Below are positions 56,875 to 63,736 of a DNA stretch of 64,000 nt, piece after piece; position 1 is the first letter of the stretch, and every line of letters begins with the position of its first letter. The notes below the pieces were generated by a model. The model did no database searches and was not told where the DNA came from. It was given only the letters and a program-made list of their open reading frames with translations. A program made the translations under genes and the position numbers. The stretch comes from Escherichia phage HY01, in sequence record NC_027349.1, one strand, 5' to 3'.

Positions 56875-58968
56875 TTATCCTTGAACGAACTTGTAAGGCA
56901 TGTTTGTAATATCTATGCAAGACGCAATAATTCCGAGAGATGATTCTGCTTTCTGTTTAACATTTGATGAAACAAATGATGCAAAGTCAACTCTGTCTTC
57001 TATTTCAATATCACCTGTCATTGCAACTACTTCGCCGGTTTCCATTAAACGGTCACCGTCATAAATTACTGATTCGGTGAGTTCTTCCGTAGTCATAACT
57101 TCAGCTTGAATGAGTTTTGTATTATTAGATGTTGTTCCGTCATTATTAGAAGCATCAGTTATTTTATTAACTTTGACCATCAATCCGCGTGGTAGAATAA
57201 CTTCAGCTTCTGTTGCTATTCCGAGACTTCCTGGATATACAACATTAACTTTATGAGCTCCATCAATTGCCCATCCTATTTGAACTTTAACGTATTCAGG
57301 ATTTTCTTTATACGCTCTTATTTCGTTTGGATTAATAGTTATTCCTTCTTCATTTTTATCAACTGTCAATTCATTACGAGCTTCTGGTTCTAAAAGACCA
57401 ATACCAGCATGTGTAATTCCAAAACGTCCAAAAATGATAGGAGTTAAAGAAGTAGATACAAAATTTCTGAAATAGAATACTTTATTTTTAACTAGTGCTT
57501 CGTATATAGGAGCAGTCATACTTTGAGCACGATAAACTGTAATGCCTTCTGGTATACGGTCGCCATTTTCAAAAGCTGAATCTAAGTTATTTATAGCAGA
57601 TTCAATTTCTTTTTCACTCATTACATCATATCGTTCTGGATTGTAGCGTCCTAAAAGAAGATTATTGATGTCAGTATATCCTGAACCGCAATACTCTCTA
57701 ATGCCACGCTTTTGTGATGGAGTATATTTAGAACCATCACGGGCAATAGTAATATCAATCATTGGACCTGCACCAATTCCAGAAAAACTATAAATCATTC
57801 TTTTGAGGAATTTAGTTTTTGCTGCGTTCCAGGAATTTTTAGTTATTTCTTCCCAGACTTCATCTGGCTGTCCTTTACGGGTTTTATTATGTTTATCAAG
57901 CCAATTATCTTTATATTCTTCAAAGAGTTGATTAACAGCTGCTGCGTATTTCTCTAAACATTTTATTGAAGTAGTTGGTTCATTTTTAATCGCATTAAGA
58001 ATTACATCTTTAATTTTTTCAGAAACTTCATTAACCTCACTTTTTGAAAAGAATTTATAATCATAGTGAAGTTCATCTGCAGTTCCTTCGGCAATAATTT
58101 TTGCTGTCTTAGTTTTAGAAGCTAATGAATTAATTCCAAGTTTCATTTCTTCTGCTTCAGGAATTAAAGGAGCTGTAGCATGTTTATTAAAATTGGCTGC
58201 GGTAGATTCATACTTCTGGAATAATTCGCTTTCAAATCTAGAAGATTCTAATGACTGGCTTTGTGCAATTGCTCTACGGGAAATTTTAACTTTAACGATT
58301 ACAGCTTGGTCAGAACGTTTATCATTTTCTTGTGCAATAGATGCTGCAATTGCCTCATTTTTAGTTACTTGAGCTCCGGTATCTTTATTGATATAAACAT
58401 CACCGACCTTCGATTCAACTTTAGTAAAGAGCTCGGTACTAATTTCCGGAACTCCTGGAATGTCTTCTAGTGATACATTTTTGCGATGTATAAGAATATA
58501 TGCATACTTTTTATCATAATCCCAGAGTTCCTTAAGAAGGACGTATCTGCCACCTGAACGACTACGGATAAGTCTATCAGCAATAACTTGAATTTGTCGA
58601 GCTTGACCAGCAGTTTTAGACTTAAGAATACGAAGCATGCAGGCATCAATTTTATACTGACGCATCGTCTGCATTGCAACAGTAAAAACTGAATTGATGT
58701 AATTAATTGGACTTGGACCGAGACCTTTTAATTTAGCAATTGAACCTTTAGCAGTTAGTGTAAAAGGAACAATGTGCATCATTTTATCGCCCATCTTTAA
58801 ATCGCGATTAGTATCACCTCCAGATGTATAGGTACATAAACGAAAGCCTGGTTGTTCAATTGCGTCATCAACATGAACTGAAAAAATTTGTGGTATTTTC
58901 TTCTTTGGATTTAAGTTTGTAATCGGAAGAGTAGTATCTTCGTCAAATAATTCTGTAATAAGTTCCAT
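56875..58968 (-). CDS. alt: Alt-like ADP-ribosyltransferase, paralog B (697 aa from second ATG; N-terminus MELITELFD)
   Basis: R-S-E ART motifs (TVYRAQ, FVSTSL, TEAEVILPRG); 3-nt gap to paralog A; late promoter upstream. Confidence 0.85.
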   Translation of the reverse strand: MELITELFDEDTTLPITNLNPKKKIPQIFSVHVDDAIEQPGFRLCTYTSGGDTNRDLKMGDKMMHIVPFTLTAKGSIAKLKGLGPSPINYINSVFTVAMQTMRQYKIDACMLRILKSKTAGQARQIQVIADRLIRSRSGGRYVLLKELWDYDKKYAYILIHRKNVSLEDIPGVPEISTELFTKVESKVGDVYINKDTGAQVTKNEAIAASIAQENDKRSDQAVIVKVKISRRAIAQSQSLESSRFESELFQKYESTAANFNKHATAPLIPEAEEMKLGINSLASKTKTAKIIAEGTADELHYDYKFFSKSEVNEVSEKIKDVILNAIKNEPTTSIKCLEKYAAAVNQLFEEYKDNWLDKHNKTRKGQPDEVWEEITKNSWNAAKTKFLKRMIYSFSGIGAGPMIDITIARDGSKYTPSQKRGIREYCGSGYTDINNLLLGRYNPERYDVMSEKEIESAINNLDSAFENGDRIPEGITVYRAQSMTAPIYEALVKNKVFYFRNFVSTSLTPIIFGRFGITHAGIGLLEPEARNELTVDKNEEGITINPNEIRAYKENPEYVKVQIGWAIDGAHKVNVVYPGSLGIATEAEVILPRGLMVKVNKITDASNNDGTTSNNTKLIQAEVMTTEELTESVIYDGDRLMETGEVVAMTGDIEIEDRVDFASFVSSNVKQKAESSLGIIASCIDITNMPYKFVQG

Positions 58969-58992
58969 CATATCCTCTCTAGTGTTTATTCT

Positions 58993-59004: not shown

Positions 59005-59022
59005 AAAGGCCCGAAGGCCTTT
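59005..59022 (-). terminator. hairpin AAAGGCC-CGAA-GGCCTTT
   Basis: perfect inverted repeat at the end of the 62-aa gene. Confidence 0.45.
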
Positions 59023-59209
59023 AATAATCTAGTGGTAAGAGAGTACGGTATATTTCAAACTTTGGCCCTTTTTCATAGGCATCAAATGTTTCTGTAAATT
59101 TATTATAAGCATACGCATCTACAAATTCGAGAATGACTTGCGATACCGAAGTAGAAACATCTCCACCTTCTTTTTGAGCTATAACAATTGTTTCTAAGTA
59201 AGCTTTCAT
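59021..59209 (-). CDS. hypothetical protein (62 aa), translationally coupled to ligase
   Basis: ATGA overlap with the gene 30 stop. Confidence 0.55.
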   Translation of the reverse strand: MKAYLETIVIAQKEGGDVSTSVSQVILEFVDAYAYNKFTETFDAYEKGPKFEIYRTLLPLDY

Positions 59210-60666
59210 AGACCAGTTACCTCATGAAAATCACCAAATACATCCTCGAATGTATTAGCTTTAGTTTTATCTTCACGTAAACGAATCACAATCGGAAGAA
59301 ATAATTTAACGTAATCAGTGCGGCCATCAGATTTTAACCAACCATTGCATTCGCACTCTAGAATTTTTCCAATATAATAATTTTGGTTTTCCATAATGCG
59401 AGTACGGTCAAGTTCATGCGATTTTACACCGGCTTTATCTTTTAAACCTGAACCAGCATTTACTTTAATTTTTCCACACTCTGATTCAAGAATAAATCCA
59501 CCTGCTTTAGTAGGGTCTTTACGGTGAGGATAAATTCCTACAATTTTTAAATCAACATCAATTACTTCTTTAAATTTATAAAGATTTTTTGAACGAGCAT
59601 TTTCCCACAATCCATCGGTATTTTTGAGAATAATACCTTCAAGACCTTGGTCAATATACTTTTTATAAATTACCTTAGCTTCATCTAGGTTATTTACTAC
59701 TTGGTTTTCAATTAAAATTACTTTATCATATCCTGATGTCATTTGTTCTAGTTTAGAAAACCGTACATCATATTTTAAACGAAACGCCGGAAGACCGTAT
59801 ATTTCTACTAACGGGACATAATCCCAGACCTGAAACTTCATACATTGAGCTTCTTTTTCTGAAATAGTTCCCTTTAAAGATTTATTGGCAATTCCATTAG
59901 AAGTAGTACGAGATTCCGCTACTTCGGCAAACTCTTTAGCTTTACTGATTTCAGGAGCATCAAAAAGAAAATCTAGGCCTTCTGGTTCCTTTTTAACTTG
60001 CTCATGGTATACCAATTCGCCATCAATTAACACACCTTCTGGATGAATCTGGCGGGCTTCTGCGGTCATTTTGATTAATTCTTCTTTAAGAAGATCTAAT
60101 CCTAGATATTCATTACCAGCTCGTGATAAAAGACGAACATCATCTAATTCATCACCTCTAACTTCAGCAAAACACCGGGCTCCATCTGCTTTTAACTGTG
60201 CAAAGGCTGGAAATTTGATATTCTTACTAATGCCTTTTTCATCATAAGAACTTGCCAGCATTTGAGGTTGTTCAGGAATTAAACCTGGCCAAACTTTATT
60301 TGCAATAGATACCGAAGCACCGCATTCGAGGTCTCGCATCATAACTCGACGCAAAACTTCAACATCATCCTTTTTACCATCAGTGATATATCCAGTTAAT
60401 TCCTCAATTGCAGCATTTCCAGTCAATTTCCGAGTAGCTAACGTGAATTCAATGAAGTCAAGCATATCGGTAATAGTCAGCATTCCAAAACTCTGAGTAG
60501 CAATACCAGGTTTAGGCCATTTCTTGATATAATACTGTAACCCACGAGAATAAGTCAGACGATATACTCGTTTAAGCAATTCGTTATCTTTATTCCTTTC
60601 AAGAATTGCTTGCTTCTGCTTAGTTGATCCAATAGATGCTATTTCATTCAGAATTTTAAGAATCAT
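59206..60666 (-). CDS. 30: ATP-dependent DNA ligase (gp30; 486 aa)
   Basis: adenylation motif KADGAR; sequence recalled as T4 DNA ligase. Confidence 0.95.
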   Translation of the reverse strand: MILKILNEIASIGSTKQKQAILERNKDNELLKRVYRLTYSRGLQYYIKKWPKPGIATQSFGMLTITDMLDFIEFTLATRKLTGNAAIEELTGYITDGKKDDVEVLRRVMMRDLECGASVSIANKVWPGLIPEQPQMLASSYDEKGISKNIKFPAFAQLKADGARCFAEVRGDELDDVRLLSRAGNEYLGLDLLKEELIKMTAEARQIHPEGVLIDGELVYHEQVKKEPEGLDFLFDAPEISKAKEFAEVAESRTTSNGIANKSLKGTISEKEAQCMKFQVWDYVPLVEIYGLPAFRLKYDVRFSKLEQMTSGYDKVILIENQVVNNLDEAKVIYKKYIDQGLEGIILKNTDGLWENARSKNLYKFKEVIDVDLKIVGIYPHRKDPTKAGGFILESECGKIKVNAGSGLKDKAGVKSHELDRTRIMENQNYYIGKILECECNGWLKSDGRTDYVKLFLPIVIRLREDKTKANTFEDVFGDFHEVTGL

Positions 60667-60932
60667 TGTTCATCCTTCAGAGTTTGATTTACATTTCTAT
60701 TATAAATCAATTCATCATTAAGCTCAGGCAAAGACCTGTGATATGTAGTTCTAACTTTATTTCCTTGCATCCAATGCTTGATATAAATGAAACCTTGCTC
60801 TACACATTTTTTAAAAATTCGTTCGTCTTTTTGAGCTCGGAATTCTGGATTGCATCTAAAAAATTGATTTACGTGACCGTAATCACGTGTAGTATTACCT
60901 TCATTTTCATAAATAGTGTGAACGACAAACAT
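60663..60932 (-). CDS. hypothetical protein (89 aa; 30.1 position)
   Basis: ORF, coupled overlaps. Confidence 0.6.
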   Translation of the reverse strand: MFVVHTIYENEGNTTRDYGHVNQFFRCNPEFRAQKDERIFKKCVEQGFIYIKHWMQGNKVRTTYHRSLPELNDELIYNRNVNQTLKDEQ

Positions 60933-61795
60933 TAGAATGCTCCTTGGAAAATATTATCACCACTAGTAAATCTATTAAAATACCCTGCATCACCAGGCTT
61001 AGTATAACTCCACGTATGGAATGGATTCATATGATACGGGTGTGTATAATATGGATTATATGGATGTGTATAATATGGATTATACGGATTAAATCCAGGA
61101 GTTCTCCAGGTAGTGTTCCAAGGAAAAGAATCGGTTTTAACCATCTTCTCAATTACATCTTTTATAGCTTTTTCACTATCAAAACTTTCTTTATTTTCCT
61201 TCGGTGAAAAAAGCTTATTTTCTACATCATTCCATGTATAAACTCGCTGAGCGGTTTTTGGAATATTATCACGCTCTCCTCGAGCCATCCAATAAACAGG
61301 AACATTTAATATTTCACTCGCGTGGTCGCAGTGGTGAGCGAGATCGTCAATATAACAAATTACGTTATATTTCTCTTTTGCCTTTTTGAACAACTCTTCT
61401 TTTGAAGAATCATGACCACACATCATTACTTCTGAGAAGGCACCAGGAAAAAGAGCATTCAAATTAAATTGACGATTTAATAGAGCATCAATAGAATCAC
61501 CCAATGCTGTAACAGCTACAAAATTATAATCTTCTTTTAATTTGTTAATTACACACAGGGCATCTTTATATGGAGACAAGTAACGAATAAAATCTGATCG
61601 ATTGTATTTTTCAATTAACTTGACACCAAGTTCTTCATCACAATTAAAGAGTTTACCTGGAGAAATAAATTTCTCATCTTGGATCATTTTTAAAATATGT
61701 TCTAACGGAAGATTATATTTCTGAGCAAAATAAGGAAGACCTGATTGCCAGCTTAAACATACTCCATCAATATCAGTTAAAATAGTAGGCTTCAT
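60932..61795 (-). CDS. HAD-superfamily-like hydrolase with Tyr/Pro-rich repetitive C-terminal tail (287 aa; 30.2 position)
   Basis: N-terminal DIDGV (HAD motif I DxDG) and later DD motif; C-terminus NPYNPYYTHPYNPYYTHPYHMNPFHTW. Confidence 0.6.
   Translation of the reverse strand: MKPTILTDIDGVCLSWQSGLPYFAQKYNLPLEHILKMIQDEKFISPGKLFNCDEELGVKLIEKYNRSDFIRYLSPYKDALCVINKLKEDYNFVAVTALGDSIDALLNRQFNLNALFPGAFSEVMMCGHDSSKEELFKKAKEKYNVICYIDDLAHHCDHASEILNVPVYWMARGERDNIPKTAQRVYTWNDVENKLFSPKENKESFDSEKAIKDVIEKMVKTDSFPWNTTWRTPGFNPYNPYYTHPYNPYYTHPYHMNPFHTWSYTKPGDAGYFNRFTSGDNIFQGAF
61037..61084 (-). repeat. tandem 24-bp duplication inside the HAD-like gene (plus strand GTGTGTATAATATGGATTATA x2)
   Basis: two adjacent near-identical 24-nt units encoding repeated NPYYTHPY. 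Confidence 0.8.
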
Positions 61796-62256
61796 AGAGA
61801 GTCTCTTAATAGGTTTAACACATCAATAAATTCAGCTTCAGTTAGTATTGTATCATCTTTTGTTAGACCACTAGCCATGCTGTGCTTCAAAACTTTTCCT
61901 TTCGAGGCTTGTAATGCATCGCGAAAGCCCCTGTTTTGGAACGCTGCTTCAAAATATGCATTTGTGTATAGCTCTTTCCACGCCGGGGAGTATCTTGAAA
62001 ACGGAACTCCAAGCCAGAACAATGTGCCACGGTCCTGAGCTCTTGCATAAGCTCGTCCAGCTTTTTGTGCGTCCAACCCGGACATCCCAAATATACGTCT
62101 TTGCTGTTCAACATTTTTCACCTTACATCCTTGGAGGAATCCTTCGAGACCTCCAAATTGGATACCATCCATAACGAAAGGCCATTGGGCAAAATTGCTT
62201 AATGCACATGATGGCCATCTAAAATTGCTTCTAATCTCTAACTCAGACATTTTCAA
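61792..62256 (-). CDS. NADAR (YbiA/DUF1768)-like protein (154 aa; 30.3 position)
   Basis: LSNFAQWP...DG...EGFLQGCK resembles the YbiA signature FSNFAAWP...DG...EHYFQAQK; C-terminal LNLLRDSL resembles YbiA LMELREQL (from memory, no search). Confidence 0.5.
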   Translation of the reverse strand: MKMSELEIRSNFRWPSCALSNFAQWPFVMDGIQFGGLEGFLQGCKVKNVEQQRRIFGMSGLDAQKAGRAYARAQDRGTLFWLGVPFSRYSPAWKELYTNAYFEAAFQNRGFRDALQASKGKVLKHSMASGLTKDDTILTEAEFIDVLNLLRDSL

Positions 62257-63403: not shown

Positions 63404-63736
63404 TTATTTTACTACTTTCCAATGCTTCATGTCAAGTTTGCCAACTTTTTTCATCTTCTCAATTAAGCGTTCAGCACGTTGGCGAGCTGTAACATAATAC
63501 CATTCACCTAATTCATTTTGTTCAATTTTTCCAACGATTACTGTATTCAATTCATAAATCCAACCAGTAAAGAAATTATGAACTTGAATTGTAAAGGTGA
63601 AATCTGTTCCCATACCTTCTGTTGTTTCTACTTCAATAATATCACCTTCAACTGCCATTAAGAACCACATAGTTTCATCATATTTACCATTGAAGCATTT
63701 AGTTTTAACTGTAGCGTTCAGATTAATCGTTTTCAT
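63404..63736 (-). CDS. hypothetical protein (110 aa)
   Basis: ATG with AAGGAGAATAAA RBS and early promoter cassette upstream. Confidence 0.6.
   Translation of the reverse strand: MKTINLNATVKTKCFNGKYDETMWFLMAVEGDIIEVETTEGMGTDFTFTIQVHNFFTGWIYELNTVIVGKIEQNELGEWYYVTARQRAERLIEKMKKVGKLDMKHWKVVK

Follow-up and report, generated by a model that had tools for sequence, protein, structure and literature searches.

The minus strand of the 64,000-nucleotide stretch of Escherichia phage HY01 analyzed here (NC_027349.1; the window) very probably carries the phage T4 gene string 30.4-30.3-30.2-30.1-30-alt.1-alt, in which gene 30.3 is adfN, whose product acts against host DarTG1, gene 30.2 encodes an NT5C-type HAD protein, and the alt ADP-ribosyltransferase (ART) genes lie close by through synteny. 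Judged by the 738 phage records that match the region and by family matches such as PF08010 (E 1e-68) and phrog_420 (E 2e-89), these are real conserved genes and not chance open reading frames (ORFs). An original prediction from the sequence of the window had called a NADAR-like and a HAD-like ORF at this locus, and had suggested that the former either counters DarT-type host defense or edits ADP-ribosylation made by the phage. Both ORFs were found on the minus strand where that prediction had placed them.

The function of gene 30.3 has been worked out in T4. T-even resistance to DarTG1 was mapped to this gene, which was renamed adfN (Johannesman et al., Nat Commun 2025, PMC11825919); its product, AdfN (anti-DarT factor NADAR), is a DNA guanine ADP-ribosylglycohydrolase that T4 needs against DarTG1 (Nat Commun 2025; Toxins 2024; HIDEN-SEQ 2025). 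Purified AdfN-T4 strips ADP-ribose from DarT1-modified DNA in vitro, the substitutions E36A and K43A and an RB69-like truncation impair it, and deletion of adfN renders T4 sensitive to DarTG1 (PMC11825919). In vitro, an independent study saw hydrolysis of guanosine-ADP-ribose by the T4 NADAR, and none of thymidine-ADP-ribose. In the transposon screen of T4 reported in the HIDEN-SEQ preprint, gene 30.3 was non-essential on K-12 and its mutants were completely lost under DarTG1, with a log2 fold change (log2FC) of -7.25 (q = 0) in the accompanying table. The clade had been recognized earlier by bioinformatics as 'phage NADARs with His', and T4-like NADARs have been described as early genes encoded along with ARTs (Iyer et al. 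2022).

By extension, the 30.3 product of the window would be an early-infection enzyme, a NADAR-fold N-glycosidase that stands alone. When the host toxin DarT1 has attached ADP-ribose to phage DNA at guanine N2, this enzyme would hydrolyze the linkage, and this removal of ADP-ribose would restore replication in DarTG1 hosts. We infer this mechanism for the window protein because it is 95% identical to T4 gp30.3, retains the catalytic residues, and is full length. The suggestion that a phage NADAR counters DarTG was therefore right but not new, because the T4 orthologue has been published with exactly this function, and the window adds one more adfN allele to known biology.

The 30.3 frame can be read from a TTG at 62256, giving the 154-residue protein of the original prediction, or from an ATG two codons downstream at 62250, giving 152 residues as in the T4 annotation. 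The ATG overlaps the stop codon of the upstream gene 30.4 (ATGTCTGA), and the T4 annotation together with the sequence favors it as the start. The signature LSNFAQWP...DG...EGFLQGCK, on which the NADAR call had been based, corresponds to residues 17-43 of the protein. A Pfam scan assigned gp30.3 to PF08010, 'Bacteriophage protein GP30.3', at E 1.2e-68, with 229.6 bits where the cutoff is 36.

Membership of the NADAR superfamily was evaluated by structure, by profile, and by intermediate sequences. When the predicted structure of gp30.3 was compared with the PDB using Foldseek, Escherichia coli YbiA ranked first (E 2.4e-5) and was followed only by two other NADAR structures. A search of the PDB with the gp30.3 family profile also placed YbiA at the top (E 0.04), with an alignment that spans the SNFA-WP...DG...E..Q..K signature. 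Relatives were abundant: among 1.84 billion cluster representatives, the profile recovered 1464 at E ≤ 1e-3. All 119 family representatives scanned matched PF08010, and 17 of the 119 also matched PF08719 at E ≤ 1e-3 (best 1.2e-6); these doubly matching proteins are therefore sequence intermediates between the two families. Those of the 17 that were inspected individually scored 17.7-21.2 bits against PF08719, for which the gathering score is 35.1.

The catalytic features of the superfamily are preserved in the window protein. Glu36, Gln40, and Lys43, of the E-x-x-x-Q-x-x-K helix whose catalytic Glu and Lys make contact with ADP-ribose in NADARs, were invariant in the close gp30.3 family; across the 119 more distant members Glu36 remained invariant and Lys43 was at least 90% conserved. 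His123 in the last strand, the marker of the phage clade, is present in gp30.3 and is invariant or nearly so in the family. The C-terminal helix is also full length and spans residues 138-151 in the model; the RB69 30.3 gene, of 414 nt, encodes an inactive allele 15 residues shorter at this helix. Taken together, the fold, the catalytic residues, and the intermediate sequences establish that gp30.3 is correctly placed in the NADAR superfamily, which bears out the family assignment that had been made by motif alone.

Several points weigh against this account of gp30.3. The direct Pfam scan gave no match between gp30.3 and PF08719 (NADAR) at E ≤ 1, searches of NCBIfam, of PADLOC, and of the PDB with single-sequence phmmer gave no match either, and the bridges from gp30.3 to the superfamily that sequence alone provides appear weak. 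A profile search with PF08719 had been proposed as a refuting check, and it proved misleading since the phage clade has a Pfam model of its own, PF08010; with fold, intermediate sequences, and literature in agreement, the negative result was not taken to refute the assignment. With regard to function, AdfN-T4 does not neutralize DarT1 in uninfected cells and only partially rescues phages outside the T-even group. Its full activity has been reported to need a further T-even factor (PMC11825919). The activity expected of the window protein is carried over from a T4 protein that is 95% identical to it, and the HIDEN-SEQ sheet was taken to compare control with DarTG1 from the order of the sheets and from the depletion of 30.3, not from its header.

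A further ORF, 30.3', is nested in adfN in the +1 frame; it is annotated in T4 and is open in the window. Its product is only 76% identical to the T4 copy, and 22 of the 25 substitutions are non-synonymous in the 30.3' frame. In the same comparison, of the phage PEC04 sequence with T4, 24 of the 33 substitutions in the adfN frame are synonymous. Judged by this pattern, 30.3' is probably not a frame under purifying selection. PF08010 itself is not restricted to phages, and many of the 1464 representatives come from gut and rumen Bacteroidales and Clostridia. Among these relatives (P0123, P0125, P0127, P0140, and P0218), some have a NADAR domain duplicated in tandem, and in others the fusion partner is a GDSL lipase, LRR, ASCH, or FtsW-like domain.

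Gene 30.2 lies directly downstream, and the 30.3 stop codon overlaps its start as ATGA at 61792-61795. Its 287-residue product is 90% identical to T4 gp30.2 and contains the DIDGV sequence, noted in the original prediction, at residues 8-12. Searches of gp30.2 against Pfam at E ≤ 1, including PF06941 and the HAD models, and against NCBIfam gave no match; the HAD model search that had been suggested as a check was thus negative, although both the fold and the motifs are those of HAD proteins. Weak PHROG matches were to PNK and GmhB-like families. Homologues were found in T4-like phages of Escherichia, Klebsiella, Erwinia, Citrobacter, Serratia, Acinetobacter, Shewanella, Pseudomonas, and other hosts. 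Among 43 family members, Asp8, Asp10, Gly11, Lys132, Asp150, and Asp151 were invariant and Thr96 was at least 90% conserved; these positions make up HAD motifs I (DxD), II (Thr), III (Lys), and IV (DD).

The AlphaFold2 model of gp30.2 was confident over residues 1-200 (predicted local distance difference test score >90), and the tail from about residue 228 was disordered. Foldseek found 102 PDB matches to this model at E ≤ 1e-3, and the 50 listed were HAD-fold proteins. Its first places went to the 5'(3')-deoxyribonucleotidases of mouse and human and to a staphylococcal deoxyribonucleotidase-like protein, with mouse cytosolic deoxyribonucleotidase (cdN; 2jao) at the top (E 1e-8); dehalogenase and epoxide-hydrolase HADs scored nearly as high. 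In a search of the PDB with the gp30.2 family profile, the sole meaningful match was again 2jao (E 0.012), from motif I to motif II. This alignment pairs DVDGVLVKWQSGL with NMDGVLADFESGL; the native cdN motif is DMDGVL, because 2jao is a D12N variant. We are confident that gp30.2, as modeled, is a HAD phosphatase with all four catalytic motifs, whose closest subfamily appears to be NT5C-like. The motifs, the model with its Foldseek matches, and the cdN profile match thus support the HAD call of the original prediction, and structure prediction, which had been suggested as a check on both proteins, gave YbiA as nearest to gp30.3 and a HAD fold for gp30.2. Translationally coupled downstream of 30.3, gene 30.2 would encode a HAD phosphatase that depends on Mg and belongs to the 5'(3')-deoxyribonucleotidase (NT5C) type. 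A literature search under the gp30.2 name and for T4 30.2 and 30.3 together found nothing relevant.

The C-terminal tail of gp30.2 (residues ~228-287) is rich in Pro, Tyr, Asn, and His, is highly variable in length and sequence among phages, and is absent from many homologues. In the window a 24-bp tandem repeat within this region encodes an extra PYNPYYTH; it sits at a 10-residue gap of T4 gp30.2 in the pairwise alignment (287 versus 278 residues overall).

The contribution of gp30.2 to counter-defense was assessed from the same T4 HIDEN-SEQ data. Insertions in 30.2 were neutral on K-12, where 72 of 72 sites were hit, and under DarTG1 their log2FC was -0.12 (q 1, 71 sites). We conclude that gp30.2 is not required for DarTG1 counter-defense in T4.

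To address whether gp30.2 is partnered with AdfN, loci containing homologues of either protein were compared. A NADAR gene was present within 4 kb of the gp30.2 homologue in 36 of the 77 viral loci, upstream and on the same strand, distant T4-like phages included; the remaining 41 had none. The ligase gene was kept in 71 of the 77. Among 79 bacterial loci from species-representative genomes, 25 encode single proteins in which an N-terminal NADAR domain is joined to a C-terminal NT5C domain (PF06941), a domain order that is the same as that of the phage genes. Most of these fusions are from Bacteroidales (Prevotella, Bacteroides, and Paraprevotella), and three of 147 global cluster representatives are also fusions of a gp30.3-type NADAR to NT5C. 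One Prevotella protein of ~510 residues (L100 5434-6966) combines Tpt1/KptA (PF01885), a gp30.3-type NADAR, and an NT5C HAD, as confirmed by Pfam; a second from Prevotella (L144 2808-4328) has the same length and NADAR-HAD layout, and its Tpt1/KptA domain was assigned by that length and layout only. The P0134 fusion is encoded on a contig (L080 1-7851; Logan ERR9710099) together with an ADP-ribosylglycohydrolase (PF03747), a PF08719 NADAR, a partial second gp30.3-like ORF, an RtcB RNA ligase, a PTP-NADK-type phosphatase, and a low-molecular-weight phosphatase, and is thus in a dense ADP-ribose and RNA-repair neighborhood.

The HAD half of the fusions was then related to gp30.2. In hhalign, the gp30.2 family aligned to the fused HAD domain with a probability of 84% (E 7.5e-6); the gp30.2 family hidden Markov model had no matches among the fusion proteins and bacterial loci, and the link is by profile-profile comparison only. 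About 10 of the 25 fusions are without the DxD nucleophile motif in the HAD half (DMGGVL, ELDNVL, TLEGLL; L108, L112, L117, L120, L128, L140, L142, and L159), and in this part of the family the HAD half may, from its sequence, be catalytically dead. A described analogue is the coupling of ARG glycohydrolases to HAD 5'-nucleotidases. The NADAR-NT5C pairing itself was not found in the literature searched, which excluded the 2012 NADAR paper.

Gp30.2 may be an independent 5'(3')-(deoxy)nucleotidase of the nucleotide pool that belongs to a ligase-proximal early block and has no link to ADP-ribose, and we put the chance of this at a little short of even. The cytosolic and mitochondrial deoxyribonucleotidases are its best structural and profile matches, it stays beside ligase in T4-like phages lacking a NADAR in the vicinity, and it is non-essential. 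The recurring bacterial fusions are hard to explain on these terms if the two activities are unrelated; in Bacteroidales they suggest that 30.3 and 30.2 are a functional pair, a modest new lead. The corresponding proposal is that the gp30.3 NADAR and the gp30.2 NT5C-like HAD constitute a two-enzyme module working on the same ADP-ribose-derived substrate or pathway, with DarT1 reversal as one output. Candidate substrates are a phosphorylated ADP-ribose derivative, an ADP-ribose-capped nucleic-acid end, or ADP-ribosylated (deoxy)guanosine monophosphate released from damaged DNA. The ATGA overlap, the same-strand placement of NADAR upstream of gp30.2, the common domain order of the bacterial and global fusions, the additional Tpt1/KptA fusion, the neighboring ADP-ribosylglycohydrolase, RtcB, and PTP-type phosphatases, the hhalign match, and the published analogue all argue for it. 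Nevertheless, we regard such a module as unlikely: 30.2 insertions cost T4 nothing on K-12 or under DarTG1, gp30.2 is more widely spread than NADAR, and T4 synteny alone could explain the adjacency, which confounds co-location in T4-like phages. The degenerate motif I of many fusions and the failure of the gp30.2 model to detect the fused domains directly count against it as well, as does the possibility of a single fusion event, because a single bacterial order supplies most of the fusions. If the module were real, AdfN would have a further role in addition to DarT1 reversal, and gp30.2 would have a function; the NADAR-NT5C fusions provide a concrete and reasonable hypothesis for gp30.2.

Because AdfN-T4 has been reported to need a further T-even factor, gp30.2 was also examined as that potentiator. 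AdfN-T4 works fully only during T-even infection, gp30.2 is adjacent to it, translationally coupled, and present in RB69, and the domain-fusion evidence applies here too. The published transposon data, in which 30.2 mutants were not depleted under the same selection that eliminated 30.3 mutants, rule gp30.2 out in this role, and we give the idea almost no credence. Gene 30.4, whose stop codon overlaps the adfN start, was present in all 14 close loci with a NADAR gene and in none of the 41 loci without one, whereas 30.5 was found in both kinds. T4 30.4 insertions were mildly depleted under DarTG1 in HIDEN-SEQ (log2FC -1.79, q 0.014). This depletion either reflects polarity on adfN, whose start 30.4 overlaps, or marks 30.4 as a candidate AdfN cofactor. 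RB69 also has 30.4.

The original prediction had noted two ARTs about 3 kb from the NADAR gene, with ligase also flanking it, and two PF03496 genes were indeed located ~2.8 kb away. Both contain the Arg, Ser-Thr-Ser, and Glu-x-Glu motifs (YRAQ/YRGQ, FVSTS, and EAEVILPRG). The second paralogue is 42% identical to T4 Alt and 41% identical to the neighboring alt orthologue; at this position T4 has only the fragments alt.-1 and alt.-2, and its annotation notes an old duplication. AdfN could in principle reverse or edit ADP-ribosylation that the phage carries out with transferases of its own (both Alt paralogues, ModA, and ModB), which would explain the adjacency. Two predicted active ARTs lie nearby, ARTs accompany the NADARs of T4-like phages, which are early genes (Iyer et al. 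2022), and two Prevotella loci fuse a gp30.3-type NADAR to Tpt1/KptA, a member of the ART superfamily (L100 by Pfam, L144 by length and layout). However, the phage NADARs tested act on guanosine-ADP-ribose in DNA, whereas Alt has been described as modifying proteins of the host, for instance RNA polymerase's alpha subunit (Iyer et al. 2022). In addition, T4 alt insertions had no phenotype under DarTG1 (log2FC -0.01), the gene order is inherited T4 synteny, 41 of the 77 T4-like gp30.2 loci have no NADAR within 4 kb, and the fused Tpt1 belongs to a different ART clade that acts on nucleic-acid phosphates. We therefore consider an eraser of phage-made marks very improbable, contrary to the second suggestion of the original prediction. 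Alt was rejected as a functional partner of AdfN on the alt transposon result and the NADAR substrate specificity; the alt genes are near adfN because T4 synteny is conserved, not because they form a writer/eraser pair.

The arrangement of the locus is summarized in Table 1. The 4.5-kb stretch around adfN is 100% identical in DNA sequence to Escherichia phage PEC04 (Tequatrovirus) and 96-97% identical to many other T4-like phages; 490 of the 738 matching phage records cover at least 80% of the query. The minus-strand order is exactly that of T4: alt paralogue, alt, alt.1, 30 (ligase), 30.1, 30.2, 30.3 with the nested 30.3', and, as far as the comparison extended, 30.4 to 30.8. RB69 has the same order as the window and T4, with a single alt. 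Promoter and terminator scans of the region were uninformative, because the counts obtained were no different from those in shuffled sequence; the best sigma-70-like match upstream of the 30.7-to-30 string is included in the table as a consensus match only. The GenBank record of PEC04 (KR233165.1) has no coding sequence for 30.3/adfN, and the gap between PEC04_0201 and PEC04_0200 holds the intact 152-residue gene (L002 8797-9243).

Table 1. Features of the adfN region, in coordinates of the 64,000-nucleotide window
Feature	Coordinates	Strand	Supporting observations
Second full-length Alt paralogue, 685 aa	54814..56871	-	PF03496 E 3.2e-20; phrog_23015 and phrog_15247
alt orthologue, 698 aa, packaged ADP-ribosyltransferase	56875..58971	-	70% identical to T4 Alt; PF03496 E 1.6e-37
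alt.1	59021..59209	-	PF24647 E 1.9e-29; position as T4 alt.1
Gene 30, ATP-dependent DNA ligase	59206..60666	-	PF01068 E 1e-32; phrog_114 E 5e-170
Gene 30.1 (DUF3045)	60663..60932	-	PF11243 E 5e-63
Gene 30.2, 287 aa; predicted NT5C-like HAD core ~1-200, helix, disordered aromatic/Pro-rich tail 228-287	60932..61795	-	phrog_420 E 2.4e-89
24-bp tandem repeat in 30.2, 2.3 copies	61034..61089		TRF score 98, 90% matches
Gene 30.3 (adfN), 152 aa, NADAR-superfamily DNA ADP-ribosylglycohydrolase (predicted from T4)	61792..62250	-	145/152 residues identical (95%) to T4 gp30.3, end-to-end alignment
ORF 30.3', 75 aa, nested in adfN, +1 frame	61887..62114	-	Annotated in T4; open here
Gene 30.4, 68 aa	62243..62449	-	phrog_2042 E 5e-34; stop overlaps adfN start
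Sigma-70-like promoter match	63406..63435	-	TTGACA-18-TAAAAT, 11/12

Compared with known systems, the window gp30.3 is closest to T4 AdfN: it shares the length of 152 residues, the flanking genes 30.4 upstream and 30.2 downstream, an intact Glu36/Lys43/His123 set, and the C-terminal helix, and it differs by seven substitutions, none at conserved positions. DarG1, the NADAR antitoxin of DarTG1 (Schuller et al., Mol Cell 2023; PDB 8bat), is more distinct. Gp30.3 is without its N-terminal extension, has His in the last strand where DarG1 has Asp, and is not beside a DarT gene, and the T4 protein, unlike the antitoxin, does not neutralize DarT1 in uninfected cells. E. coli YbiA (PDB 2b3w), a housekeeping NADAR and riboflavin-intermediate N-glycosidase, is only ~19-20% identical to gp30.3, has Glu in place of the last-strand His, and has a different physiological role. 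The 698-residue Alt is 70% identical to its T4 counterpart and occupies the same position, and both window copies match PF03496; the locus departs from T4 in its second intact paralogue (41-42% identity), which stands where T4 has the fragments alt.-1 and alt.-2.

Gp30.2 resembles the cytosolic and mitochondrial deoxyribonucleotidases of NT5C (PF06941; 2jao, 2i7d, and 1q92) in its HAD Rossmannoid core with a helical cap and in its DxDGV..(F/W)(E/Q)SGL motif I and Thr, Lys, and DD motifs. It differs from them in its low identity (14-17%), the lack of a PF06941 match, a larger cap insertion, and an extra C-terminal region of ~85 residues, of which the last ~60 are disordered. The Bacteroidales fusions (e.g., L147 4926-5933 and P0134) are single polypeptides encoded in the chromosomes of gut and rumen bacteria, some with an additional Tpt1/KptA domain, and the kinship of their HAD half, a canonical PF06941 domain, with gp30.2 is only distant. 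They nevertheless contain the same two domain types in the order 30.3-30.2, and the NADAR half of each matches PF08010, with 35-41% identity to gp30.3.

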